DNA of 56,085 bases from Campylobacterales bacterium. Its GTDB lineage: Bacteria > Campylobacterota > Campylobacteria > Campylobacterales > JALSKU01. Position 1 is the stretch's first letter. Every line of letters begins with the position of its first letter. The position numbers were made by a program, and so were the translations under genes. Below are positions 11,649-33,910 of this stretch, piece by piece. Below the pieces are notes generated by a model that did no database searches, was not told the DNA's origin, and saw only the letters and a list, made by a program, of their open reading frames with translations. The stretch lies in contig JAMOOV010000043.1 of NCBI GenBank assembly GCA_027065125.1, positions 1 to 56,085 of the forward strand, written 5' to 3'.

Positions 11649-12700
11649 TCTTTTCTGAAGATTACACACTTAAATCTTTCTCCCATAAATGAGGGGTCTA
11701 TGAGATATTTTACTTTATTCAGCTCTTTTAGATAACTCTTTTGCCCACCTCTGTTTTTAACTATTTCAAGCAAATCCAAAAGTCCGAACTCCACTAAAGC
11801 TTTTAACTGAGTCATATATGATAATGTTTTAATATTTGCCTCCAAAAAAGAGTCTATAAGATGAGAAAAATTTACATCATAAGTTATATCGCTAATTTTA
11901 TATAAAGATTGCAAATTTTTCTCTTTTGTTAAATTTTTATCCTCTACAAAATGTGTCAAAGAGAAAAACGGATACACTTTATGTTTATCGTATATCCTCA
12001 ACGAAAAATCATTTCTAACCAATTTATCACCATAGTCAAAAGTTACAAATTCAAATTTTCCTATACTTTTATATAAATTTAAAGCAAATTCTTCATATCC
12101 TTTTGCAATTTCACCCTTTTTTATAGTATATCTTTTAGATATAGTTTCGGTATATTTATCTTGTTTATCAAAATATGAATCAAATTTTTTCATATAAAGC
12201 ATCTTATCATCTTTAATTACTTCACAAGCAAATGCATCAAATATTTCATTTGCAACAACAAATGCCGAAGGCAAAGACATATCTTCAAAATTAGAAAAAA
12301 TTTTTAATTCAATCCTGTTGCCAAAAGAGTTTTTAAAATAATCTCTTTGTACAGTATGTAGCTCAACTCTGGGTTCAAGTATGGCAAAATTTAAACTGTC
12401 AAACAAATCCTCGTCAATCGTATAGATAAATTGAGCTATATCAGCAAGTAGATATCCTTTGTGAGCTCCGATTTCCAATATCGTAGTATCTTTATGCAAA
12501 TATTTATCTTTTATTATTTTTATAAGTCTATTCGCAATAGAACCGCCAAAAAATGACGATGCACTCACCGCTGTAAAAAAATCGCCCTCTTTTCCTATAT
12601 CTTTATAGGAGCTATAATACCCCTCTCTACCATAGAGCCAATCCTGCATAAAATCACTAAATTTGACACCTTTTTCTTGACTATTTTTGCAAATGTTCAT
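11645..12700 (-). CDS. SAM-dependent methyltransferase, MidA/DUF185 family
   Basis: 'FSDFMQDWLYGREGYY', 'DFFTAVSAS..FG' and 'ILEIGAHKGYL' resemble the MidA family. Confidence 0.65.
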   Translation of the reverse strand: MNICKNSQEKGVKFSDFMQDWLYGREGYYSSYKDIGKEGDFFTAVSASSFFGGSIANRLIKIIKDKYLHKDTTILEIGAHKGYLLADIAQFIYTIDEDLFDSLNFAILEPRVELHTVQRDYFKNSFGNRIELKIFSNFEDMSLPSAFVVANEIFDAFACEVIKDDKMLYMKKFDSYFDKQDKYTETISKRYTIKKGEIAKGYEEFALNLYKSIGKFEFVTFDYGDKLVRNDFSLRIYDKHKVYPFFSLTHFVEDKNLTKEKNLQSLYKISDITYDVNFSHLIDSFLEANIKTLSYMTQLKALVEFGLLDLLEIVKNRGGQKSYLKELNKVKYLIDPSFMGERFKCVIFRKD

Positions 12701-13874
12701 ATAAACCTAACAATAAAATATTTATATCATTTTGATAAATGTATTTATCTATTTTTGTATTTTCAAGAGAATTTCTCATAGTATCAACATCAGATATAGT
12801 CTTTTCTCCACCTTTAAATAAATCTTTTGTAGTTTCAAGCAATGATTTATAAAGTTTTTCTTGTTTTTTTGCCAGTTTGATTTTTCTTTTATAAATTTTG
12901 ACTTTTTTTACTATTGAATCATACAACTCCATTTCACTTTTTTTCTTATCTTTTAAATCCAATTTCGATTTTAAATATTTTAACTCTTGTAGTTCAATAT
13001 TTTTTTTTCTATTAATGTCAAAAATAGGCATTGATATGGATATGCCATACTGTTTGTATGAATCTTTATTAACTTTGATATAATCTGTTCTATTGCTATT
13101 GTAACTTGCAAAGAGTGATATGGTTGGAAAATAGCTTGAAATTCTCATCTTTTTAAGATAATTCAACTGTTTTTGATTGGATATTTGATCTTTCAAAACT
13201 AAGTTGTTTTTTAAAAATGTTGTTAAATTGATCAAATCAAGACAAGGTAACTCAACCTTCTTATAATCCATAGAACTCAATGTTTTAAAGTTTTTCAACA
13301 TATCTATTTTTGAAGAAATCATATCTAAAAGAGAAATTTCTAAAGAATTTTTCTTCAAAATTGCATTGTCAAGAAAACTACTATCAATAACTCCGCTTAA
13401 ATACTGTTCTTTTTTTCTTGCGATATCTATTTTGGCATTTTCTATCAAAAATCTCTGTTTTTTTATCTTCAAATCGATACTTTTCAAGTTCAATATAGCA
13501 AGATATACATTTGTAAGCATTGATTTTTCTTTTAAAGAGGTGGCAAATTGCAAATACTCCCTATTTACTTTGGCATACTGTATAGCATAATATATACCAC
13601 CGCTTTTAAATATCGGCTGATTTAATGATATTGAAAAATTATCCGTCGTTTGTTTTGGAGAAGTTCTATCGCTTTTTGTATGCGACAAAGAAGCATTTAT
13701 CGGATTTATCCAATCAAACTCCAATATATCACTACTTTTTATATTTTGCATCTGTTCATTTTTTATAATATCTTTTTTTGTTTTCGATAATACTTCATTA
13801 TTACCATCTGCATAAATATTTATCGCAATAAACAGACTAAACAATACTTTAAAAACATTTTTCAAGTCTTTCAA
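12681..13874 (-). CDS. TolC-family outer membrane efflux protein
   Basis: Signal peptide, about 400 aa, with two coiled-coil/beta repeats typical of OEP proteins. Confidence 0.7.
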   Translation of the reverse strand: MKDLKNVFKVLFSLFIAINIYADGNNEVLSKTKKDIIKNEQMQNIKSSDILEFDWINPINASLSHTKSDRTSPKQTTDNFSISLNQPIFKSGGIYYAIQYAKVNREYLQFATSLKEKSMLTNVYLAILNLKSIDLKIKKQRFLIENAKIDIARKKEQYLSGVIDSSFLDNAILKKNSLEISLLDMISSKIDMLKNFKTLSSMDYKKVELPCLDLINLTTFLKNNLVLKDQISNQKQLNYLKKMRISSYFPTISLFASYNSNRTDYIKVNKDSYKQYGISISMPIFDINRKKNIELQELKYLKSKLDLKDKKKSEMELYDSIVKKVKIYKRKIKLAKKQEKLYKSLLETTKDLFKGGEKTISDVDTMRNSLENTKIDKYIYQNDINILLLGLYEHLQK

Positions 13875-22267: not shown

Positions 22268-23152
22268 CTAATCACGATGAATTATCTCCATCCTGATATT
22301 ATTAATCTGCTCGGCAAGAAGTGCAGATATAAAAAGTATAACTGAATTTGACAGAAGAAAAACTGTAGTATTGGTAAGATTGATATGATATAAATCTACA
22401 CAAAATGAACCCAACCCTAATGTCCCAAATACAATACTAAGAGGCAAAACAACTCTTAGTGGTTTAAAAATCATTCCCAATTCTAAAATTTTTAAAATGG
22501 TTCTAAAACCAGTTTTCATACTTACTTGACTCTCCCCTGTTGTTCTTTTTTGAACATTTATAGGAATATATATCAAATCGTATCCGTTGGATATATATGC
22601 CAAAGTTATAGATGTGGTAAAACTAAACCTCTCGGAGCAAAGATGTAAAAATTTTTTAGCCTCTTTTTTACTAAACACTCTAAAACCGGAATTTATATCC
22701 GGTATCTCCTGTTTGAAGATAAAATTGGCAATCTTGTGAAGCAAAATCTTTCCCAAAACTCTGCTTACTTTTGTCTGATAAACTTTTCTCTCTCCTATAA
22801 CCATGCTCTCTTTGCTCTCATAAGCATCCAACAGCTTGGGTATCTCTTCGGGTCTGTGCTGACCGTCCGAATCCATTATGACTATAGTATCATATTTTGC
22901 ACTCTTAATACCTGTTTTTAATGCTCCTCCATATCCTCTGTTTTTTTTATGGTGAATAACCGTTATACCGTCAAAATTGTCTAAAATTTCAGGACTTTTA
23001 TCTGCAGACTTATCATCAACACATACTATCTCATACTCATATTGCTTAGAATCCAAAAAACTTTTTAAACTCTCCAAAGTCATCTCAAGAGACGACTCTT
23101 CATTATGCACTGGTATAACTATACTAAACTGTTTTTTCATCTTTTTCATCAT
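22268..23152 (-). CDS. Glycosyltransferase family 2, GtrB/ArnC/CsbB-like, with two C-terminal TM helices
   Basis: 'FSIVIPVHNEE', 'CVDDKSADKS' and 'IMDSDGQHRPEEIPKL', plus C-terminal hydrophobic segments. Confidence 0.85.
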   Translation of the reverse strand: MMKKMKKQFSIVIPVHNEESSLEMTLESLKSFLDSKQYEYEIVCVDDKSADKSPEILDNFDGITVIHHKKNRGYGGALKTGIKSAKYDTIVIMDSDGQHRPEEIPKLLDAYESKESMVIGERKVYQTKVSRVLGKILLHKIANFIFKQEIPDINSGFRVFSKKEAKKFLHLCSERFSFTTSITLAYISNGYDLIYIPINVQKRTTGESQVSMKTGFRTILKILELGMIFKPLRVVLPLSIVFGTLGLGSFCVDLYHINLTNTTVFLLSNSVILFISALLAEQINNIRMEIIHRD

Positions 23153-24659
23153 CTTTATCTCTCTTCAGCGATTTTGCTTTAATCTTCATCACTTTTATTT
23201 TTATGGATTTTTCAGCCTCCAAAAAAACATTTACCAAAATAGGACTAAACATCTTATTTTCCGATTTTTTTATCTCTGCCACCGCTTCCTCATGAGTTCT
23301 ACCTTTTCTATAAGATCTGTCACTTGTTATTCCTGCATAAAACTCCCCCATAGCTACAACTTGAGAGGATATAGGTATTTGAGACTCTTTAAGCCCGAAA
23401 GGATATCCTCTTCCGTCAAATCTCTCGTGATGATACTTTATGATATCGGATATCGGATATATATGAGATATCGGCTCAACCATAATACTTCCTATCAATG
23501 GATGCTCTTTTATGAGATTTATATCAGACTCTTTTAAATCACTCCTATCTAAAACCGCAAGCAAATCCCCTACCATTCCTATATCATGGAGATAAGAACC
23601 AAGCATTATGGCATCTATCTCCTCTTCGGATAAAAATAGGGATTTTGCTATCTCTACAGAAACCATTTGAACAATCAAAGAGTGGTTTTCATAATATTTA
23701 TTTTCAAGCTCAACCGCTTCATTGGTAAAATTCAATAAAGAGAGATAATTTTTCACCATTTCGCTATTTTTATCTATATTTTCTATAAAAGCTCCCGACA
23801 TATCAAGAAATGAGCCGACTTGAGACAATGTCGTGGCAGACAAAGGTTTATTGTCATAAAATTCAAGCTTGTATGGAGTATTTCTTATATAAAATACTTT
23901 TTGAAGTTCCGATCTCAAAGAGGGTTTATATTCAAAGATCAAATCTCCGCCTTTTGTAAGAAGTCTGGCTCCTTTAGCTTTAGTCATTTTCAACACAAGA
24001 GCAACAAAAAACTTAAAAAATTGATATTTATCCATCTGCAATTTCATAAGAGAAATCGAAGTATCTTTCGTAACATTCAAAAGCATTTGAGAACCTTTTG
24101 ATCTATTTTTATCGGATGCTTTTGCATAAAAGCCTAAAATTATCCTAAAAAATCCCTCATATCTCTCTTTTATCACCTCTTGATAGCTATAGAAAAGTAT
24201 CATATATTTTTCATTTTCTCCGGTAAAATAACTTATTTCAAATTTGCCACTTTTTTTAAATGTTTTTAAATCCTTTTGTCTTAATCTTACCGGTATCGCT
24301 ACAAATGAGTTGTTTGTGGTATCCGATTCGAGTAAAATATATGTTTCTCCTCTCAACTCGTAAAGAGCCGAATATTCTGCCTTGATCATTTTATTGCTTT
24401 TTAATATATAATTTTCGATATCTTTAATATCGGATTTAAGGCTCAACTCTTTTAAATACTTGTTAATAGTTCTAAATTCCAATTTTAATTTCAGATTAAC
24501 TCTAAAATATTTCATATTTAGTATAATCATCAGTATAGAAAAAATAAAAAATACCCACCAATACCGATTTAAAAAGTCATTTATCTGTTCTAAATTTGAC
24601 AATATAATATCAGGTAAAACATAATTAAAATAGTATCTACTTTGTTCAAAAAAAGTCAT
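23124..24659 (-). CDS. Membrane-anchored HD-GYP domain protein (putative c-di-GMP phosphodiesterase/receptor)
   Basis: One N-terminal TM helix, an uncharacterised (GAF-like?) region of about 270 aa, then 'YLHDIGM' and 'HHERFDGRGYPFG'. Confidence 0.85.
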   Translation of the reverse strand: MTFFEQSRYYFNYVLPDIILSNLEQINDFLNRYWWVFFIFSILMIILNMKYFRVNLKLKLEFRTINKYLKELSLKSDIKDIENYILKSNKMIKAEYSALYELRGETYILLESDTTNNSFVAIPVRLRQKDLKTFKKSGKFEISYFTGENEKYMILFYSYQEVIKERYEGFFRIILGFYAKASDKNRSKGSQMLLNVTKDTSISLMKLQMDKYQFFKFFVALVLKMTKAKGARLLTKGGDLIFEYKPSLRSELQKVFYIRNTPYKLEFYDNKPLSATTLSQVGSFLDMSGAFIENIDKNSEMVKNYLSLLNFTNEAVELENKYYENHSLIVQMVSVEIAKSLFLSEEEIDAIMLGSYLHDIGMVGDLLAVLDRSDLKESDINLIKEHPLIGSIMVEPISHIYPISDIIKYHHERFDGRGYPFGLKESQIPISSQVVAMGEFYAGITSDRSYRKGRTHEEAVAEIKKSENKMFSPILVNVFLEAEKSIKIKVMKIKAKSLKRDKDDEKDEKTV

Positions 24660-26851
24660 TTTTTAAGCCTTTCCATTTTTGATTGAAAATTTAGCTTTTT
24701 TAAACGATTTACATATTTGCTATTGTCTATTTCATAAACCGTTACTGTTTTTGTTTTATAGTATACCCTAATATTACTGTGATTTACACTATATATAGCT
24801 ATCCAGCTTTTTAAACCACTTTGTACTTCACTTCTCCACCTATAATACCACTCCCCTTTTCCCTCATAGGGATTTGGAAAATTTTCTACAAATATATAAA
24901 TTTTTGGAGTTGGAATTTTTAGATATTTATCACTCGGATTATATTTTAAAAGAAAATTTTGAGTATTGACATGGTATCCCTTGTTTCTTACTTTTGAATA
25001 TTCTTGAATATAAGACACGACAGTCCAATCAAAAGGTCTGTTGTCAGAGTTTATTTTTAGAATGATATCTGAAATAGAGGTATATTCCAACTGGTTGATG
25101 CTTTTCCAAAAAAAGTTGGTATCTACCCATCTTGGAACTGTTAAAATAAATATAATAAAAATGACATAAGAGACAAATAATATAAAATATTTTGCATATT
25201 TTTTAAATAGCAAGAAAATAGGATAGCAAAAAAGATAAAAAAAGTAAAAAGCAAGTAATAAAGTTATTCCAAAAAACATATATTCTGCCAATCTGCTTTG
25301 TTTTGCCACTAAAGGCAATCCAAAGTTTGGTCCAAAATATGGAATAAAAATTCCTATGATTATCAAAACATATGATGTGTTAATAAATTTTTTTTTAGTA
25401 AACCAAGAAAAGATATAAGAAAAAAATATCATTACAAAAAAAGTAAAATGCAATCTTGTTATAGTGATTATGGCGATATTGTTTGTGCCCATTTTTGCTA
25501 TATCATTTATGTTTCTCTCTGTGCCTAAAAGCTTATCTAAAAAGGGAGCTGCCGCACCAAAGTCTTGAGGAATACCATATTTTATCATGGATAGTATCCA
25601 TAAATTGCCAATTATGGCAGCTATAATTATACAAAAAAAACCTTTCTTTAGTATGGGGATGTCAATTTTTCTAAAAATTACTGCATTTATTGCAATTAAA
25701 ATACTAATTATAATCAATATTATTGCTCCGCCACCATGAAAAGTAAAAACCAATATTAGTGTTAAAGTATATAAAATTAAGTACTTATTTAAGCGAGTAT
25801 CTATTGCTTTGATTAAAAAATATGCATTTAAAAGAACAAAAACTGAAGCATGTTCATAAGCTAAACCTGATGTATACCTTAAATATGGGACATTTCCACT
25901 TTTGTATATGTGACCTACTAAACTATTTATTGGTGGAAAATATATTTTTAAACCGTAAAAATCAATTAAAGGAGGTTTGTCGGTAACTATAATGCTTCCC
26001 AATATAAAATCTGATAGAGGACTCATTAAAACAATACCATGAATCATAACAGCAAAAATTCCAACATATTTTGAATTGCTAAAACTTTTAACAATATAAA
26101 AAATTGAAAAATACATTGCCAACAATAATAAAATTGGATACAAGCTAAATAAAATTATCAAGTCTATATTCGTAAAAACATTTACGAAAAATATAATAAT
26201 AGCCTGTCCATAAAAATCTGCACTTATTCTATTGCCTGAAAATAGTATATTGTGTTGTAGGTTGTTTACCCATTCTATAAATTGTGAGGTATCTGGGAGA
26301 GGGTTGCTATAACTATAAAGACCCCTTAACATAAGGGTTGAAATGATATAAAAAAAAACAGTAAAAAATAGCAAATTTTTTAACATAGAATAAAAGGTTA
26401 AAGATTGTTGAAACTTGATGAATTTATATTTTACATAACTTAAACTTTTCTCTTTTAGTTTGCTACGATGATCTAAAAAATCTAATACCCAAAGCATCAT
26501 GTTCACTCTAAAATTATTTAAAAACAATATTATATTTTTTTTATAATACCACTTTAAAAAAGCTAATTTTGTGCCAATTAGAACAAGCATAAAAAGAAGC
26601 AAAGAAAATGCTTTTATAAAAACTAAAAAAGTTACTACAGTTTCCACATATGCAACCATAAATATAAAATTAAAAACTATCTTTTGGATACCTTGTCCTG
26701 TATGTTCTTGAGGAAATATTTTTGTGGGTACCCAGTAAAACATCACATAGCTCATAAATAATATTTTAAGCATATACCACCAGTTTTTTGCAAAAATATG
26801 GTAAATAATATTTAAATCTATAAAATATACATCAAAAGCATGTGTAAACAT
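24656..26851 (-). CDS. Large polytopic membrane protein (about 16 TM plus a C-terminal soluble domain of about 150 aa); possible GT-C-type glycosyltransferase or polymerase
   Basis: The ORF is long and translationally coupled (ATGA overlap). The function is inferred only from topology and neighbours; I recognise no diagnostic motif. Confidence 0.35.
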   Translation of the reverse strand: MFTHAFDVYFIDLNIIYHIFAKNWWYMLKILFMSYVMFYWVPTKIFPQEHTGQGIQKIVFNFIFMVAYVETVVTFLVFIKAFSLLLFMLVLIGTKLAFLKWYYKKNIILFLNNFRVNMMLWVLDFLDHRSKLKEKSLSYVKYKFIKFQQSLTFYSMLKNLLFFTVFFYIISTLMLRGLYSYSNPLPDTSQFIEWVNNLQHNILFSGNRISADFYGQAIIIFFVNVFTNIDLIILFSLYPILLLLAMYFSIFYIVKSFSNSKYVGIFAVMIHGIVLMSPLSDFILGSIIVTDKPPLIDFYGLKIYFPPINSLVGHIYKSGNVPYLRYTSGLAYEHASVFVLLNAYFLIKAIDTRLNKYLILYTLTLILVFTFHGGGAIILIIISILIAINAVIFRKIDIPILKKGFFCIIIAAIIGNLWILSMIKYGIPQDFGAAAPFLDKLLGTERNINDIAKMGTNNIAIITITRLHFTFFVMIFFSYIFSWFTKKKFINTSYVLIIIGIFIPYFGPNFGLPLVAKQSRLAEYMFFGITLLLAFYFFYLFCYPIFLLFKKYAKYFILFVSYVIFIIFILTVPRWVDTNFFWKSINQLEYTSISDIILKINSDNRPFDWTVVSYIQEYSKVRNKGYHVNTQNFLLKYNPSDKYLKIPTPKIYIFVENFPNPYEGKGEWYYRWRSEVQSGLKSWIAIYSVNHSNIRVYYKTKTVTVYEIDNSKYVNRLKKLNFQSKMERLKK

Positions 26852-26856
26852 TAAAA

Positions 26857-28173
26857 TTATTTCCTTATGATCACAAAATCAACCCTTCTGTTAAAAGATC
26901 TTCCTTTTTCAGTTTTATTGGAGGCTATAGGTCTATCTTCTCCATAACCTACTACATCAATCCTACTTCTATCTATTCCCATTTTTACCATTTCACTTTT
27001 AACTGAATTGGCTCTATTTATAGAGAGTTTATAGTTGTATTTTCTTGATGCTATACTGTCAGTATTGCCTTCTACTCTAACTCTATAAGTAGGATGTTCC
27101 TTCAAATATCTAACTATCGGTTTAAGCAACTTAATACTATCGGGTGTTAATTGATATGAATCATATGCAAAGTGTAAATTGTGGAGTGAGAGTTTTAGTC
27201 CCTTATCAAATCTATCTTTAACATTCTGATATCTATCCTTATCCCAATCAAGATACATTCTATTTAACAAGAAATATATAAGTTTCCATCTAAACAGCTC
27301 TCCATCGTACATTTTATCCTGAAATTCAAAAGGTCTTAAAAATACCACTCCGCCTTTTCCGTATCTTATAAAAGATACAAGAGGTTTTCCAGTTTTGGAT
27401 CTGAGTATATATCTGCCCTTGGGTATAAAATCAACCGTCATAAAATTTTTCGTAATTAGTTGCAGATTGTTTATATCTTGAAAATATGGTATATCACTCT
27501 TTACTCTATATTTGAGCTTCAAAGGCTCATAGTTGATAAAATCAAGCTTTTTGCTTTTATAGATATATGTTTGAACACTCTTATCGAGAAATTTTAAATT
27601 TCTACTTTTTTCCACCATTTTACTTGTAATGGCTTTAGCATCTATCTCACCGTTTTTCTTAAAAGTATCGTATCTCGTAGAATAGATACCTCCTTCAACC
27701 CAGAGAATTCCACCCTCGTCAATCCACCATTTAAGTATCTCCTGCTCTTTTGATGATAAGTTGTAAGTATAGCCTATATCTTCAAAAAGATCGTTAGAAA
27801 CTCTTTTAAATTCATTAGCCCACATAGGAAGTACATAGACAAAATCCTCGGCAAAAGGATTTGTTCTAAGTTTCCAAAAATCAACATCTTTTATATTATC
27901 AAATTTATATCTATAGTCTATCTTGCTATAAAACTGATCTGAAAACTTTCCATGAAAATCTATAATAGGTTTATATGAAACAAAAGGAAATTCTTTTAAC
28001 AGTTTTCGGCCATTGTTGACTTCAGGCCAAATATTATCTACTGTTACATCATAAATCTCGACTCTTTCCGGAGATAATATCTTCTTTTCAAAAGTGGCAT
28101 CATTTCTAATCGCACAACCCCCTAAAAACAAGATAATAAAAATAAAACTTAATATATATTTTCTCACAAGCAA
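26857..28173 (-). CDS. Lipoprotein with a C-terminal OmpA-like peptidoglycan-binding domain and an unknown N-terminal domain of about 310 aa
   Basis: Lipobox 'LGGC'. The C-terminus 'VEGNTDSIASRKYNYKLSINRANSVKSEMVKMGI...NRRVDFVI' is OmpA_C-like. Confidence 0.8.
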   Translation of the reverse strand: MLVRKYILSFIFIILFLGGCAIRNDATFEKKILSPERVEIYDVTVDNIWPEVNNGRKLLKEFPFVSYKPIIDFHGKFSDQFYSKIDYRYKFDNIKDVDFWKLRTNPFAEDFVYVLPMWANEFKRVSNDLFEDIGYTYNLSSKEQEILKWWIDEGGILWVEGGIYSTRYDTFKKNGEIDAKAITSKMVEKSRNLKFLDKSVQTYIYKSKKLDFINYEPLKLKYRVKSDIPYFQDINNLQLITKNFMTVDFIPKGRYILRSKTGKPLVSFIRYGKGGVVFLRPFEFQDKMYDGELFRWKLIYFLLNRMYLDWDKDRYQNVKDRFDKGLKLSLHNLHFAYDSYQLTPDSIKLLKPIVRYLKEHPTYRVRVEGNTDSIASRKYNYKLSINRANSVKSEMVKMGIDRSRIDVVGYGEDRPIASNKTEKGRSFNRRVDFVIIRK

Positions 28174-28180
28174 ACCTTTT

Positions 28181-29758
28181 CTAAAAAGACGAATAATAGT
28201 AAAAATCTAATTTTTTAAACATTGTAGCAGCATAATTAAAACTTAACCACCAAAATAAAACACTACCTACAAGCAGACCAAATACGGCAAATTCAAGTCC
28301 GAACATTCTACTAAAAATTACACCTATGACAATATTTACAAATGTAGCCAACGAAATCGACTTTAACGAAAAATTTTGTCTCGAAAATGAAAATATAAAC
28401 AGAACATTCATCAATCCGTTAACCAAAAAAGCATAAGATACAGCCCCAATCCAATATACAAACGGAGTATAACTATTAAAAAAGTTTTCGATATACTCAA
28501 AATTAAAAAATTTATGAATAATCCATATAGATAGGAAAACTACGATAATAATAGCAATCGAAAAAAATAGATATACAAAATTGAATTTTTTAAAGAAAGT
28601 AAAAACACTATTGTTAAATTTAAGATATTCATTATACTTAAATGAGATGATCATATCGTTTATTCGATACATAAATTCATGTATGCTTATCTCTGTAAAT
28701 CCCATAAGTAACACCAAAGATATAAGTGCCCAATCAAGCCCAAGCTCATAAGGAACATCAAACCATATAAAATATGGTTTTGCTTCTACATTGGTGCTCC
28801 AAGCTGTTATCCTGTCTGCGACAAGAAAGATAAAATACATCAATCCGTACATATAAAACGGTATCAAAGAGTAAAAAAGTATGGAAGCTCTTGGTGTTCC
28901 CTCGCCCTCGGCAATAACATTTTTTTTCAAACCTCTAACTTTTTTATAAGCGAAAAATGAGAGCACTGTGTTTAAAATAACAAGAGCGATAAATTGTGCT
29001 TCGGGAAGTTTTATTTTAAAAAGAGAGTGAACAATGTAAACAAGAATTATACCAAGTAGAAAAAAGTATAAAATTTTCATATACTCTTCAAACATATAAT
29101 AAATCGATATATTTAAAAATAAAAATGATAGTAAAAAATAAAAAGCTATCAAGATAAAAAAATAGTAAGTAGGTAAAACATCAAAAAAAAAGTTAAACAG
29201 CATCAATATAATCCCTACGGCAAAAACAAGAATAAAACCAACATTCACCAAAACTATTGTAACATTTGAAGCAAGTATGGTTTCACTCTGCTTTAGATAA
29301 AACAGACCTTTTCTTCCTATAGCTTGAGCGGAAGCTCCGGTAACTATAAGAGCTAAAAAAGTTCCGAGAGCTATAACCGTAGCTTTTGATTTATCAAGAT
29401 TGATACCTGACCATATGGCATAACCTATGGAAAGAGTAAAAAATATTTGCACGAACATAGGCATAGCAAATGCCAATCCTCTAATATAGTTTTTTACAAC
29501 TCTTTTGCCAAAAGCCGGTAACTCCTCCCACTCTACAAGCTTTTTAGATGGATACTTTTTGATATCCTTATATCTCATAAGATATTTAGCCATCTCAAAA
29601 ACATTTTTAAAACCGTAATCTTTTTGGACATCAATATCTCTAATGCCATATATCTCAAGCAAGGCGGCAATCTCCCAAAAATCCAAAGGTTTACCTTTGT
29701 TTTCGGTTATCTTTTTATAAAGTATGCTTAGATCTTGACTGTTGCCGTCTGTTGCCAC
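28181..29758 (-). CDS. 12-TM PelG-like (MOP-type) membrane protein with a cytoplasmic N-terminal extension of about 95 aa
   Basis: I count 12 hydrophobic helices. It sits directly downstream of a PelF-like gene (31-nt overlap), as pelG does. Sequence-level identity to PelG is not verified. Confidence 0.45.
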   Translation of the reverse strand: MATDGNSQDLSILYKKITENKGKPLDFWEIAALLEIYGIRDIDVQKDYGFKNVFEMAKYLMRYKDIKKYPSKKLVEWEELPAFGKRVVKNYIRGLAFAMPMFVQIFFTLSIGYAIWSGINLDKSKATVIALGTFLALIVTGASAQAIGRKGLFYLKQSETILASNVTIVLVNVGFILVFAVGIILMLFNFFFDVLPTYYFFILIAFYFLLSFLFLNISIYYMFEEYMKILYFFLLGIILVYIVHSLFKIKLPEAQFIALVILNTVLSFFAYKKVRGLKKNVIAEGEGTPRASILFYSLIPFYMYGLMYFIFLVADRITAWSTNVEAKPYFIWFDVPYELGLDWALISLVLLMGFTEISIHEFMYRINDMIISFKYNEYLKFNNSVFTFFKKFNFVYLFFSIAIIIVVFLSIWIIHKFFNFEYIENFFNSYTPFVYWIGAVSYAFLVNGLMNVLFIFSFSRQNFSLKSISLATFVNIVIGVIFSRMFGLEFAVFGLLVGSVLFWWLSFNYAATMFKKLDFYYYSSF

Positions 29759-31245
29759 TCTTCATCCTTATTTTCAATATATTCGTTATATAATTTTTTA
29801 TACATAACACTATAATTTTCCACCATATCCTCTATAGAAAAACCGTTTAATATAAACTCTCTCGCATCGCTTCCCATCTCTTGTGCAATATCGGGATTTT
29901 TTAAAATATATATAACCTTATCGGCAAATTCTTGATAATCTTTCGGTTTTATTACATACCCAAACCCCTCAAGCACCTCTTTCGTACCCCCTACATCCGA
30001 AGAGACTACAACCTTTTCACAAGCCATCGCCTCTATAACAACAAAAGGGAAAGCCTCCGAAATACTTGTAAGCATAACGACATCTCCCTCGTTGTATGCA
30101 CTCTCTGGACTATTTGTTAAGCCGGAAAATTCAAAATTGTTTTCAATACCAAGTTCTTTCACAAGGCTTTCGCATTTATGATAATACTTTTCATCTACAA
30201 TCGGACCATAGAGTTTAAATAGCACATCAGAAATCTCCTTAGAAACTATATCGGCAGTTTTTATAAAAGTTTCTATATCTTTTAAAGGATCTATTCTTGC
30301 TACCATAACGACAGTAGGTCTTTGCTCATCTTTTTGTATATTCATATTTTTAAATTTTATAGTATCTATGCCATTATAAATGGTATGTATCTTGTTTTTA
30401 TCCACTCCCCATTCTACTTCCCATCTTGAATTATAGTCACATACTGGAGCAATAATATCGGCATAATAAAAATTTAGCTTAGAAACAAGAGTAATTAGCC
30501 CCATCATAAACTCTTTGGTACGAATCGGCATCAAATTCCTTGAAGCGGCAAGATATTGCTCTCTTATGTAAACTCCATGTTCTGTTAATAAAAATTTGCT
30601 ATTGAACTTTTTTTTTGCAACTATACAAGAAAGACCACAAAAAGCTGCCGCCGAAGAGTGATATATGTGAGCTTCGGGAAGATGAGGCAAAAGAGATATA
30701 AAAAATCTATAAAGATATCTAAGTCCCTCTATCATATCAAAAACTGTAGGAAGATCCTCTTTGATATCTTTGTAGTGATTTAAAATATATCCTCTATAAA
30801 TATTCCACATCTCTTCGGATCTAAATGTTTCATAATAATCATACTTATGAAAATATTCATAAAACTCATAGATCGCATCTCCAAGAGCTTCAAGATCATT
30901 TTTTTTCCTATAAATATGGTCTAACACTAAAATCAAAATAGGTTCTAATTTTTGTATATTATTACTTACCTGGGTTTTTATCTTTGCCTCATATATAATT
31001 GAAAAATCTATCTGTCTTATATACTCGATAGGCTCTTCTGTTCCCCACAAAGGAACATTTATAATATCAACAACATTCGGAGGTATATCAAACTTTAATT
31101 TTACAAAGGGATGCATCTGTATAGGAATAAGGGTAAAATCTATATTTTTGAGTTCATGCATTAATATATCAGCCCATGTGCTAACACCTCCCGTTACATA
31201 GGGGTAGGTACCCTCACCCGTCCAAACTACCTTAATACGACTCAT
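29728..31245 (-). CDS. pelF: PelF-family GT4 glycosyltransferase (DUF3492-type N-terminus)
   Basis: 'VVWTGEGTYPYVTGGVSTW', 'LTEHGVYIRE' and 'VMLTSISEAFPFVVIEAMACEKVVVSSDVGGTKEVLEG' closely parallel P. aeruginosa PelF blocks as I recall them. Confidence 0.8.
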   Translation of the reverse strand: MSRIKVVWTGEGTYPYVTGGVSTWADILMHELKNIDFTLIPIQMHPFVKLKFDIPPNVVDIINVPLWGTEEPIEYIRQIDFSIIYEAKIKTQVSNNIQKLEPILILVLDHIYRKKNDLEALGDAIYEFYEYFHKYDYYETFRSEEMWNIYRGYILNHYKDIKEDLPTVFDMIEGLRYLYRFFISLLPHLPEAHIYHSSAAAFCGLSCIVAKKKFNSKFLLTEHGVYIREQYLAASRNLMPIRTKEFMMGLITLVSKLNFYYADIIAPVCDYNSRWEVEWGVDKNKIHTIYNGIDTIKFKNMNIQKDEQRPTVVMVARIDPLKDIETFIKTADIVSKEISDVLFKLYGPIVDEKYYHKCESLVKELGIENNFEFSGLTNSPESAYNEGDVVMLTSISEAFPFVVIEAMACEKVVVSSDVGGTKEVLEGFGYVIKPKDYQEFADKVIYILKNPDIAQEMGSDAREFILNGFSIEDMVENYSVMYKKLYNEYIENKDEEWQQTATVKI

Positions 31246-33094
31246 AAAATTTTCTCTTTCCCACTAAAATACTTAAGAGCGATAACTCTTTGATATAATT
31301 TTGTTCCATATTTATGTATTGCTTTTTATAATCAAAATACTCTTTTAAAGCATCAGAATACTCTTTGTATGTTGATATGCCACTTAAATATCTTTTTACA
31401 GTAATATCATACTTTTTATGTGACAAAAAGAGTAGTTTTTTCAAAAAGCTTTTTTGTCTATCAAGTCTCTCGACTTCATGATAAGACTTTTCCACCTTTA
31501 TCAATATATCTCTATGTTTTGCCGAGAGAACTCTCCTTTGTTTCAATATACGATACCTCTCTCTTTCTTGAGAAAGTCTAATATCATCTCTTTCGTAAAT
31601 AGGAGCTCTAAAAGTTAAGCCCAAAGACCAAAACGAGCCTTTACCGGCATTTGAAAAGGTAAAAGTATCATCTTTATTGAGTCCGTAACCTACTCTGGAT
31701 GTAAAATCTATTTTAGGATAGTATCTTCTCTCTTGAGAGATTAAGTCGGCCTCTTTGATTTTTAGTATATTGGATTCCGTTGCTATATCGCTACTGTGCT
31801 TGATAGCCTCTCTTTCCAATCTGGCAAGAGACTCTATATTTAGATTTACTTTTGCAGGATGGAGTTTAAAAGGTTTTTTGCTTTTTGATTTTATACTGTG
31901 TCTTAAAACATAGTCTCTATATCTATATCTATATGCCGAATCAAGTATAGCCCTTTGTATATTTATATAATCTCTTTGAGCATTTATGTAGTCTAAAATA
32001 GAATTTTTACCAAGCTTATATCCTTCATCAACTATCTTTTTAACGAAAAGATGTTTTTTTAGCATCTTCTTATAGTCGCTTAGCTCCTCTTGAGCGGAAT
32101 ACATATCGGTATATATAGCCGTTCCCAATACGGATAGCTTCTCTTTAGCATTTATCTCTTTGATATCCGCCAATCTTTTATATAAAATATCATATGCATT
32201 TTTAACAAGTCCATATTGCCCGTCATATAGAAGTTTATTGGCATTTAAAGATATACCGGCATCGGTATATTTTCCGTTTCCTTTTATATTGTTGCCGTTA
32301 GTGGATATACTTGATCCTGTTCTGATATATCCGTCTATATATATATCGAAATTGTATCTATCTTTCTTTATCTCGGAGAGTATATACTCTATCTTTTTTT
32401 GATAAAAAGCCTCTTTGGCACTATCGTTATAGTTAAAAAGTGCTTTTATATATCTATCAAAATTAAGTATATCATACTTTTGAGTATCGGATTGTTTATA
32501 TAGTGCGGGGATTTGGTGCTTTTTTAAAACTTCCGGTTCATTTAGTTTAACCCCATTTTCAATATTTGATACTTTTTTTGAAGCAAGAAAGATATGTTTT
32601 TTATTTTTATCCATATTGATTTCTTTGAGTTTTATCTGTTTTGCAGGACTCTCTTGAGAAATATTTTTCTGGATAAAACAGGTTGTGTCAATATTTTTAC
32701 TATTTTTTGCATCAAATGTTTTTATTGTATTGTTCTCTTTTTGACTTGTTTGTGCAAAAGGCAGAGATTTTATAGGCTGATTCTTGACGATTTCAACTTT
32801 TTGCTTGGTTGACGAGATTCTGTCTATTGAATCATCCTTGATTATAAAAGCATCTTTGTAATATCTTTTTGCAAATTTTATCGTTTTTTTAGCTTCATTA
32901 TAATTTTTGATATGGCTTATCTTAAATACATAATACTTTTTTTGTTTTTCTATGGTGCCATTTGAAAATCTATTTAAAAAATTTTTTTTATCTTTGTTGT
33001 AAACTTTTATTGTTGAAAAAAATATGATATTATATTGAGAGGCTTGCAGGGAAATAACTGTTATAAAAAATAGAACAAATTTAAAAAATTTCAT
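31232..33094 (-). CDS. Outer-membrane TolC/OEP-like protein with an N-terminal SPOR-like domain; first gene of the EPS operon
   Basis: Signal peptide. Residues about 20-90 ('YNIIFFST...YYVFKISHIKNYNEAKKTIKFAKRYYKDAFII') fit the SPOR beta-alpha-beta pattern. The C-terminal portion of about 400 aa has OEP-like coiled-coil repeats. Confidence 0.5.
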   Translation of the reverse strand: MKFFKFVLFFITVISLQASQYNIIFFSTIKVYNKDKKNFLNRFSNGTIEKQKKYYVFKISHIKNYNEAKKTIKFAKRYYKDAFIIKDDSIDRISSTKQKVEIVKNQPIKSLPFAQTSQKENNTIKTFDAKNSKNIDTTCFIQKNISQESPAKQIKLKEINMDKNKKHIFLASKKVSNIENGVKLNEPEVLKKHQIPALYKQSDTQKYDILNFDRYIKALFNYNDSAKEAFYQKKIEYILSEIKKDRYNFDIYIDGYIRTGSSISTNGNNIKGNGKYTDAGISLNANKLLYDGQYGLVKNAYDILYKRLADIKEINAKEKLSVLGTAIYTDMYSAQEELSDYKKMLKKHLFVKKIVDEGYKLGKNSILDYINAQRDYINIQRAILDSAYRYRYRDYVLRHSIKSKSKKPFKLHPAKVNLNIESLARLEREAIKHSSDIATESNILKIKEADLISQERRYYPKIDFTSRVGYGLNKDDTFTFSNAGKGSFWSLGLTFRAPIYERDDIRLSQERERYRILKQRRVLSAKHRDILIKVEKSYHEVERLDRQKSFLKKLLFLSHKKYDITVKRYLSGISTYKEYSDALKEYFDYKKQYINMEQNYIKELSLLSILVGKRKFYESY

Positions 33095-33162
33095 TTTTTT
33101 CCTAATGATTTATCTCATAGACTTATGGAAGACATTGTAGCTATCCTAACAAATACTACAGT

Positions 33163-33176
33163 AGTATAACATTATA
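33163..33176 (-). promoter_or_regulatory. Candidate -10 region(s) for the EPS operon (TATAAT, and an overlapping TGTTATACT, on the minus strand)
   Basis: Read from the reverse complement ...AAAAAATATAATGTTATACTACTG..., about 70-80 nt upstream of the ATG at 33094. Confidence 0.35.
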
Positions 33177-33273
33177 TTTTTTAAAATCTCTTTTTATATT
33201 TGTTTTATGTCGTATATTAAGTGAAATAAGATAAGTAGAAAGTAAAATGATAATAAAATATTGAATCAACAAT

Positions 33274-33303
33274 ATAAGTTAGAAATTAAAATTTCTAACT
33301 TAT
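33274..33303 (-). terminator. Intrinsic terminator hairpin after ppiB
   Basis: Perfect 13-bp stem ATAAGTTAGAAAT/ATTTCTAACTTAT with a 4-nt loop, 6 nt after the ppiB stop. The downstream tail is moderately U-rich. Confidence 0.55.
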
Positions 33304-33308
33304 ATGCT

Positions 33309-33806
33309 CTAATTTTTTATTTTTTCCAATATTTCGATAGATTTTATTTTGTCGCCTTGCTTAAGAGAATCTAAGACTTTGAAACTCTCTTCATCAGAAC
33401 TATCAATCTCTCCAAATACCGTATGAACTCCGTCAAGATGAGGTTGTGCCTCAAAGCATATAAAAAATTGGCTTCCGCCTGTGTCTTTGCCGGCATGAGC
33501 CATAGAGATAGAACCTCTTTGATGAGTGTGAGTATTTTTATCACATTCACAAGCTATACTCCATCCGGGACCACCTGTACCGGTTCCGTGAGGACATCCA
33601 CCTTGAGCAACAAATCCGGGTATAACTCTATGAAAGTTTAAATTATCGTAAAAACCATCATTTGCCAATGTTGCAAAATTTGCAACTGTATTGGGAGTTT
33701 CTTTAGGAAAAAGTTTGATAGTGATATCTCCCTTTTCCGTATGTATGATAGCATATTGAAATTTATTTAATTCGTCTTTTGAGTAGTCATAAGTCTTTAG
33801 TGACAT
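33309..33806 (-). CDS. ppiB: Peptidyl-prolyl cis-trans isomerase, cyclophilin type
   Basis: '[13 protein letters not shown]', 'GGSQFFI' and '[10 protein letters not shown]'. Confidence 0.9.
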
Positions 33807-33833
33807 TTATTTCCTTTATTGTGATATAAAAAG

Positions 33834-33910
33834 TGGTCGGAACGACTGGATTTGAACCAGCGACCTCACCCACCCCAAGGGTGTGCGCTACCAGGCTGCG
33901 CTACGCTCCG
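33834..33910 (-). tRNA. tRNA-Pro (anticodon GGG)
   Basis: Hand-folded cloverleaf: acceptor CGGAGCG/CGTTCCG, anticodon stem CACCC/GGGTG, loop UUGGGGU, T-loop TTCAAAT, encoded CCA. Confidence 0.9.

Follow-up and report, generated by a model that had tools for sequence, protein, structure and literature searches.

A SPOR-like/TolC-like fusion protein linked to pelF and pelG: a candidate outer-membrane duct of a Pel-like exopolysaccharide system in Campylobacterota

Introduction

By which route would a polymer made by PelF- and PelG-like proteins cross the outer membrane of a campylobacterotal cell? The question is raised by a contig of a Campylobacterales bacterium (JAMOOV010000043.1, assembly GCA_027065125.1; 56,085 nucleotides (nt), the whole of which we call the window), in which a reverse-strand gene at 31232..33094 encodes a protein of 620 amino acids (aa) that joins a SPOR-like domain to a TolC/OEP-type outer-membrane protein. 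To our knowledge, all well-studied Gram-negative synthase-dependent exopolysaccharide systems (alginate, cellulose, poly-N-acetylglucosamine (PNAG) and Pel) export their polymer by way of a beta-barrel porin to which TPR repeats are coupled. A previous sequence-only reading of the window had proposed that the fusion protein tethers an export duct to the cell wall and could replace the PelB/PelC pair. We followed up this proposal computationally and find, with a probability of roughly 0.6, that the gene encodes the dedicated and wall-associated outer-membrane duct of a Pel-like exopolysaccharide system.

Results

Linkage of the duct gene to pelF and pelG

The conserved linkage of duct gene, pelF and pelG in several phyla is the stronger and the most interesting result of this work. 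In the window, the duct gene shares a translational coupling with pelF and pelG. A locus scan with one genome per species yielded 16 loci, all of them from Campylobacterota lineages and with Sulfurimonas- and Sulfurospirillaceae-type loci among them, and pelF was found directly downstream of the duct gene in all 16. The next gene is pelG in 13 of the 16, the contigs of the other three ending first, and the lipoprotein, the 731-aa membrane protein and the HD protein encoded further downstream in the window follow wherever DNA is available. The family is patchily distributed: of 401 genomes sampled from the phylum, 17 gave a match to its profile, and a genome of the same genus (n = 1) is without it. 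In three genomes of another genus, the ducts are 25-30% identical to the query and the gene order is the same.

Additionally, the closest 50%-identity representatives include SPOR+OEP and AMIN+OEP proteins, two of which are listed in public databases under Nitrospirota names. Seven of these representatives served as queries for a metagenome scan, which led to nine loci of Nitrospirota-type relatives. The pelF gene stands directly after the duct gene in eight of them, and wherever these eight reach far enough pelG comes next; the ninth contig breaks off within the duct gene. The adjacency is thus kept at a duct identity of about 21-25%. Genes for GT2 (glycosyltransferase family 2), GNAT-like, LPG_synthase_TM-like and deacetylase proteins, the N-terminal domain of the lipoprotein, the 731-aa protein and the HD protein were found near the metagenome ducts. 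The 731-aa protein, which is 34% identical in the metagenome loci, is kept with pelF and pelG across phyla and is a candidate core component of the system. In two of the metagenome loci (L089:9242-11026 and L090:8878-10665), pelF matches in two pieces about 350 nt apart, which suggests an insertion or an extra PelF domain in that lineage.

The C-terminal part as a TolC-type protomer

The open reading frame (ORF) of the sequence-only reading was recovered exactly, on the reverse strand and with 620 aa, the motif quoted there corresponding to residues 54-85. It starts with ATG, preceded by AGGA about 8 nt upstream, and its product consists of four parts, namely a putative signal peptide, a folded domain of about 70 aa, a disordered linker that spans about 110 aa and, at the end, a whole TolC/OEP protomer. 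The Pfam OEP profile (PF02321) matched the protein in two stretches with 94.9 bits, compared to a cut-off of 22, and an E-value of 6.8e-27, and in the same way an OEP scan of the organism's own genome matched both halves of the C-terminal part. OEP was found in all of 59 homologs, which public databases label merely as 'TolC family protein'. When the family profile was compared with the PDB, E. coli TolC was matched at 8.3e-12.

The full-length AlphaFold model (alignment of 57 sequences) has a mean predicted local distance difference test (pLDDT) score of 77.3. Residues 205-620 are well predicted and contain four beta strands as well as long helical hairpins, and Foldseek aligned the model to TolC chains with an E-value of 9.8e-20 and target-normalised template modelling (TM) scores of 0.67-0.75 over about 420 columns. 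The sequence and the model together show residues 205-620 as a complete predicted TolC-type protomer, next to a separate N-terminal beta-alpha-beta-beta-alpha-beta domain. The layout put forward earlier from the letters, a SPOR-type fold, a low-complexity linker and a TolC-type region, is borne out, with all parts seen in the AlphaFold 2 (AF2) model and the TolC-type region matched by Pfam and Foldseek. By analogy with the family, the protein should form a homotrimer with a beta-barrel and a periplasmic alpha-tunnel.

The scores for two NCBIfam subfamilies, 41.1 bits for TolC of type I secretion (TIGR01844, cut-off 225) and 25.4 bits for the NodT lipoproteins (TIGR01845, cut-off 210), are both far below the cut-offs, so that we place the protein in the TolC family outside its named subfamilies. 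A NodT-type lipoprotein was rejected on this score and because the signal sequence has no Cys. A gene fusion created by the assembly was also rejected, since 9 independent genome loci and numerous metagenome proteins share the architecture. Among the nine OEP genes of the genome, this one alone has an N-terminal extension (open frame of 625 aa compared to 365-480 aa). A second, ordinary OEP-family gene lies in the window at 12699-13700 on the reverse strand (400-aa frame).

Like E. coli TolC, OprM and CmeC, the protein presents two OEP repeats, and its protomer of four beta strands and long paired helices superposes on TolC. Unlike them, it adds an N-terminal folded domain and a tether of about 110 aa, without a lipobox, and its gene sits with glycosyltransferase genes, no membrane-fusion protein or pump being recognisable in the 12 downstream ORFs, the range covered by all statements below on downstream genes. 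The linker contains K (21), I (12) and N (11) among its 111 residues and is also rich in S and Q. At its end, residues 182-200 follow the family consensus PKLNEPKIL..Y.IP..YK, in which E186, P187, I195, P196 and K200 are nearly invariant in 32 sequences. This motif, modelled with low confidence, may serve as a peptide that contacts a partner or the adjacent protomer.

The N-terminal domain as a diverged SPOR homolog

Folded alone with AF2 (41 sequences), the N-terminal domain reached a pLDDT of 91.1 and a predicted TM score of 0.78, with the order beta-alpha-beta-beta-alpha-beta, and the full-length model presents the same secondary-structure elements at residues 21-86. We searched 48,161 PDB representative chains with VIA-align. 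The SPOR domains of RlpA (Z 7.1, root-mean-square deviation (rmsd) 2.4, 68 aligned) and CwlC (Z 7.0, rmsd 2.5, 72 aligned) were ranked first and second, followed by those of DamX (rank 5, Z 6.5), DedD (rank 12, Z 5.8) and FtsN (rank 14, Z 5.5). In the Foldseek list, the CwlC SPOR chain has the highest TM score (0.65/0.66), at rank 3 and with an E-value of 0.025.

A profile of 61 family domains was then compared by hhalign with 21 canonical SPOR domains from Campylobacterota genomes, chosen by Pfam SPOR. The local alignment covers beta3-alpha2-beta4 with a probability of 96.4%, an E-value of 1.2e-9 and a score of 49.3, and the global mode gave a probability of 91.7%. In comparison, 100 column shuffles of the SPOR alignment did not exceed 4% and a score of 16.6, and the reversed alignment gave 0.4% and 11.3. 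With phmmer, the query domain matched the N-termini of two homologs, P0060 (2.6e-12) and P0067 (8.7e-10). These two pass the Pfam SPOR cut-off of 21 bits (39 and 24.5 bits, respectively), as do P0070 (23.8), P0117 (25.5) and the metagenome duct L083 (30.6). Pfam SPOR was found at E<=1 in 13 of 57 domain-bearing family proteins, no other family recurring on that region, and in four genomes the identical DNA stretch was matched by both Pfam SPOR and the family profile. Some homologs carry the domain in tandem duplication, which indicates an independent module.

From these sequence and model comparisons, we conclude that the N-terminal domain is a diverged SPOR homolog, and we call it SPOR-like because the Pfam SPOR model fails on it. 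A six-frame Pfam SPOR scan of the whole genome matched two other genes (contigs C180 and C38) and not the gene at 31232..33094. A PDB search with the long alignment, made of full-length homologs and well aligned only over the first 77 query columns, matched TolC-family chains and no SPOR chain. The direct Pfam scan, which the earlier reading had itself set as a test that could refute it, gave no SPOR match, and the SPOR assignment is supported indirectly by the structure ranks, the profile-profile comparison and the SPOR-passing homologs.

The module shares the fold of the SPOR domains of FtsN, DamX, DedD, RlpA and CwlC, its best structural matches, and a profile-level homology over beta3-alpha2-beta4, including a '..F..Y..A....K....AFI' pattern. 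In contrast to them, it is N-terminal on an outer-membrane protein and not C-terminal on a division protein, it is missed by Pfam SPOR, and in its glycan site the Gln and one Arg have given way to other residues.

Exchange of the N-terminal module and its occurrence on other proteins

The SPOR-like domain is present in 9 of the Campylobacterota loci; three further loci begin inside the gene and are not assessable. In the metagenome ducts, the N-terminus was matched by SPOR in L083 (L082 being P0127 itself) and by AMIN in L084 and L089, with 62 and 34.8 bits, respectively. The L087 and L090 ducts have a helical N-terminal region without assigned family, and the L085 duct, of 436 aa, has no N-terminal module. 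Since duct, pelF and pelG are constant while the N-termini differ, the core is conserved and the N-terminal module is exchangeable.

The AMIN domain occurs on the PilQ secretin and on AmiC. In AMIN-domain outer-membrane proteins, such as PilQ and the AMIN-TonB transporters, a wall-binding module likewise stands at the periplasmic N-terminus of an outer-membrane channel, and in the relatives of the window duct AMIN takes the same position as the SPOR-like module; the module of the window differs from it in fold and family. That SPOR-like and AMIN modules replace one another on this duct suggests that its registration with the cell wall matters for the machine.

We also found the module on other proteins. 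In two genomes of another Campylobacterota genus, two proteins of a single alginate-like operon carry it (L070:8998-19479 in G045; L071 in G005), N-terminally on an AlgE-like porin (Alginate_exp, 6.7e-22) and C-terminally on an HlyD-like protein. Other products of this operon are a UDP-glucose/GDP-mannose dehydrogenase, a GT2 enzyme, a TPR protein and an 871-aa beta-helix protein. These genomes have the module a third time, in a 713-aa multi-TPR protein (L073:12868-15009 in G045; G005:C1:393356-393556) outside any polysaccharide cluster seen, and Pfam SPOR matches this stretch at 22.3 bits. The module is therefore one that recurs on periplasm-facing parts of polysaccharide secretion machines.

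Short ORFs of 100-170 aa that correspond approximately to a signal peptide and the SPOR-like module, either stand-alone or truncated, were observed as well (P0089, 104 aa; P0084, 170 aa). Two of this kind, G032:C1:1303555-1303761 and G040:C1:1331225-1331434, have no pelF nearby in either genome.

Organisation of the gene cluster

The duct gene is the first of its cluster (Table 1). A gap of 214 nt lies between it and the cyclophilin gene before it, its other end has a 14-nt overlap with pelF, and Pel-like genes follow, in agreement with its earlier description as the first gene of an exopolysaccharide operon. A promoter and terminator scan of 31000-33900 did no better than shuffled sequences (15 found, 15.7 expected), and no promoter was assigned. 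Beyond the genes of Table 1, the downstream ORFs encode GT2, two LPG_synthase_TM, DUF2304, GNAT/FemAB-like and deacetylase proteins; no ABC, RND or MFS transporter was found among them.

Table 1 Features of the fusion gene and of its cluster in the window. Positions are those of the window; residues are those of the encoded protein.
Feature	Positions	Strand	Basis
Whole gene, 620-aa SPOR-like/TolC-like fusion protein	31232..33094	-	ORF list; stop codon 31232-31234
Predicted signal peptide, residues 1-18	33041..33094	-	Translation: hydrophobic core, Ala at -1, no Cys; helix 2-14 in model
SPOR-like domain, residues 20-86, beta-alpha-beta-beta-alpha-beta	32837..33037	-	AF2, VIA-align, hhalign, phmmer
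Disordered low-complexity linker, residues 91-201	32492..32824	-	pLDDT <50; length varies among homologs
Conserved short motif at linker end, residues 182-200	32495..32551	-	Alignment of 32 sequences
Predicted TolC/OEP protomer, residues 205-620; two repeats, each of two beta strands and long helices	31235..32482	-	Pfam, Foldseek, model
Upstream intergenic region, presumed promoter region, 214 nt; AT-rich hairpin just after the cyclophilin gene	33095..33308	-	Sequence
pelF-like GT4 glycosyltransferase	29728..31245	-	NCBIfam PelF equivalog 169.3 bits, cut-off 100; Pfam DUF3492 and Glycos_transf_1
pelG-like polytopic membrane protein	28181..29758	-	Pfam PelG E 9e-4, 18.7 bits, cut-off 29; 418/452 profile positions aligned
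438-aa lipoprotein, domain of about 300 aa without assigned family and OmpA_C peptidoglycan-binding domain	26857..28173	-	Pfam OmpA 4.4e-23; Cys-containing signal sequence
731-aa polytopic membrane protein, no named family	24656..26851	-	No Pfam/NCBIfam match; syntenic in relatives
HD-GYP-type protein, candidate cyclic di-GMP (c-di-GMP) phosphodiesterase	23124..24659	-	Pfam HD_5 2.8e-21; NCBIfam NosR-family c-di-GMP phosphodiesterase 112 bits, below cut-off

The Protein Atlas neighbours of the 731-aa protein are unnamed or DUF6541/DUF1616-type clusters, and those of the lipoprotein N-domain are unnamed or DUF clusters, in both cases with TM scores of about 0.5, which makes them leads only. In one locus (L075:9935-14501 in G014), the gene of the 731-aa protein is seemingly a tandem duplicate with two tblastn segments per copy, which may reflect frameshifts or a real split.

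The OmpA_C part of the 438-aa lipoprotein is confined to the query's clade, and distant relatives keep the N-terminal 300 aa only; it is absent, for instance, from the lipoprotein of the three genomes of another genus that share the gene order. Given this patchy occurrence, wall-binding modules appear to be gained and lost on another component of the system as well.

In comparison with the Pel system of Pseudomonas aeruginosa (PelABCDEFG), the window operon likewise has a PelF equivalog, which is followed by a membrane protein with a sub-threshold PelG match; its cluster includes a deacetylase, and a c-di-GMP-related protein is encoded close by. It differs in that no PelA, PelB, PelC, PelD or PelE is recognisable by Pfam, in that the outer-membrane part is a TolC-type duct and not the PelB porin/TPR protein with the PelC ring, and in that the regulator is HD-GYP-like and not a PelD receptor. 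A PelD_GGDEF scan of the genome gave no match, but the control genomes likewise gave none.

Discussion

The arrangement described here would fit the following mechanism. A polymer would be made by PelF and PelG together with the conserved lipoprotein, the 731-aa membrane protein and modification enzymes, and it would leave the cell through the trimeric TolC-type duct and not through a porin of the PelB/PelC type. The SPOR-like module, on its flexible tether of about 110 residues, would hold the duct, or perhaps the entire trans-envelope assembly, in a fixed position relative to the cell wall; alternatively, the tethered module may handle the polymer. The replacement of PelB/PelC suggested in the sequence-only reading fits the strict adjacency of the TolC-like gene, pelF and pelG and the lack of PelA-E-like Pfam matches in the downstream ORFs, PelB and PelC not having been searched elsewhere in the genome. 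On the whole, that reading was right on the architecture and is plausible on the function, with a putative wall binding that rests on family and context.

Several observations weigh against a wall-associated Pel duct. With respect to export, no PelA, PelB, PelC, PelD or PelE was found by Pfam in the downstream ORFs, PelG is only a sub-threshold Pfam match, and the passage of polymer through the duct is a step that we infer. TolC ducts normally need a membrane-fusion adaptor, and none of the HlyD type is recognisable in these ORFs. With respect to the module, Pfam SPOR (PF05036) had no match on the 620-aa protein at E<=10, the domain-only profile matched no PDB chain at E<=10, and Foldseek on the N-terminal domain alone returned nothing at E<=0.001. 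Every VIA-align Z-score is below 8, a range where a common fold alone can explain the likeness, and unrelated ferredoxin-like chains are interleaved with the SPOR chains at Z 7.0-6.2. The module is also missing in 4 of 13 assessable Campylobacterota loci (L014-L017, Sulfurimonas-type, about 500 aa) and in the metagenome duct L085, and it is therefore dispensable.

The residues of the glycan site add to these points. According to excerpts of a study of the RlpA SPOR domain with its glycan, Q270 (FtsN Q251) is highly conserved and key, R309 and R311 form a basic pocket, F274 makes a CH/pi contact, and the contacts are largely main-chain (PMC6895207). In the global profile alignment, whose beta1 part is of low confidence, RlpA Q270, R309, R311 and F274 correspond to I24, V56, K58 and T28 of the query. 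At the beta1 Gln column, the 61 family domains present I (31), L (13), V (7), Y (3), K (3), F (2), M (1) and one gap; Gln occurs in 0 of 61 at this column and nowhere at positions 21-27. The R309-equivalent column is occupied by E (26), V (19), T (6) and R (6), and the R311-equivalent is still basic in 46 of 61 domains (K 42, R 4). Conserved aromatics (Y54, Y55 and F57) are abundant at the sheet positions. As the side chains of the classical glycan contact are replaced, the ligand may be another wall feature or the polymer itself. The binding of denuded peptidoglycan, as claimed in the earlier reading, is weakened by the replacement of the Gln in all 61 domains; it stays plausible by analogy with the AMIN swap in relatives, and we infer it from family and context and not from conserved site residues.

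These substitutions are the starting point of the best-surviving alternative, according to which the SPOR-derived module has lost its binding to peptidoglycan and is a periplasmic guide or docking piece for nascent polysaccharide or for a protein partner. We regard it as unlikely, although it deserves more weight than any other alternative. Besides the family-wide loss of the Gln and of one Arg and the conserved sheet aromatics, it would account for the presence of the same module on the AlgE-like porin, the HlyD-like C-terminus and the TPR protein of another genus, two of them in one alginate-like operon, and the window operon already has a classical wall anchor in the OmpA_C domain of the 438-aa lipoprotein. 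Nevertheless, the largely main-chain nature of the SPOR-glycan contacts in RlpA implies that a loss of side chains need not end binding (PMC6895207, excerpts), the beta1 section of the alignment is precisely its low-confidence part, and it is the wall-binding AMIN domain that takes the place of the module in relatives.

A second alternative would keep the duct and change its cargo. The OEP family serves mostly in efflux and type I secretion, as the NCBIfam names reflect, and the duct could be an efflux or type-I-like exit for another product of the cluster, such as a glycolipid or a small molecule, or act in envelope integrity, being merely co-regulated with pelF and pelG. The two LPG_synthase_TM proteins, the GNAT/FemAB-like protein and the GT2 enzymes could build a lipid-linked product, and no adaptor visibly links the duct to PelG in the downstream ORFs. 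However, the duct gene overlaps pelF, the two genes remain neighbours in different phyla although the rest of the cluster is rearranged, the TolC and NodT cut-offs are missed widely (41 versus 225 and 25 versus 210 bits), and the downstream ORFs hold no ABC, RND or MFS transporter; we consider this reading improbable. That the N-terminal domain is an unrelated ferredoxin-like fold resembling SPOR by chance, as the failed direct Pfam match, the Z-scores below 8 with unrelated folds close by and the Foldseek E-value of 0.025 for a SPOR chain might suggest, is very improbable in view of the profile-profile score far outside 100 shuffles, the sequence continuum to domains above the Pfam SPOR cut-off and the four genomes in which Pfam SPOR and the family profile match the same stretch.

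A dedicated outer-membrane duct for a Pel-like polymer would have parallels in systems where a TolC-type duct has been proposed as the exit for a synthase-made polysaccharide. In the available extracts of the respective papers, the mixed-linkage glucan of S. meliloti (BgsAB-TolC) requires TolC (PMC13438883), and an XcsAB-TolC cellulose system has been proposed for cyanobacteria (PMC12430437). Those systems, as described in these extracts, use a general TolC encoded elsewhere and an HlyD-type adaptor, whereas the window duct is a dedicated paralog within the operon, with a module of wall-binding type and with no adaptor seen. A survey of pel operons mentions neither efflux proteins nor Epsilonproteobacteria in its main text, supplements aside (PMC7112194). 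In the portions of the literature consulted, we found no description of a SPOR-TolC or AMIN-TolC fusion for polysaccharide export, nor of a TolC component of Pel, in line with the earlier remark that such a fusion had not been described for this purpose.

More tentatively, and with rather more doubt than we attach to the function of the gene itself, we propose that these loci represent an undescribed, multi-phylum Pel-like apparatus, in which a TolC-type duct would take the place of PelB/PelC without a classical adaptor, together with the conserved lipoprotein, the 731-aa protein and interchangeable periplasmic modules. The module of the Campylobacterota would then define a new subfamily of SPOR domains, one whose ligand site is altered and which is specialised for machines that secrete polysaccharides, because it is found on AlgE-like and HlyD-like components as well.

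If at least two phyla indeed tie a Pel-type synthase core strictly to a TolC-type duct, this would constitute a second exit route for synthase-dependent polymers, and it raises the mechanistic question of how a long polymer is fed into a TolC tunnel without an HlyD-type adaptor. In the same way, a SPOR-like subfamily without the canonical Gln would offer a natural test of SPOR ligand specificity.

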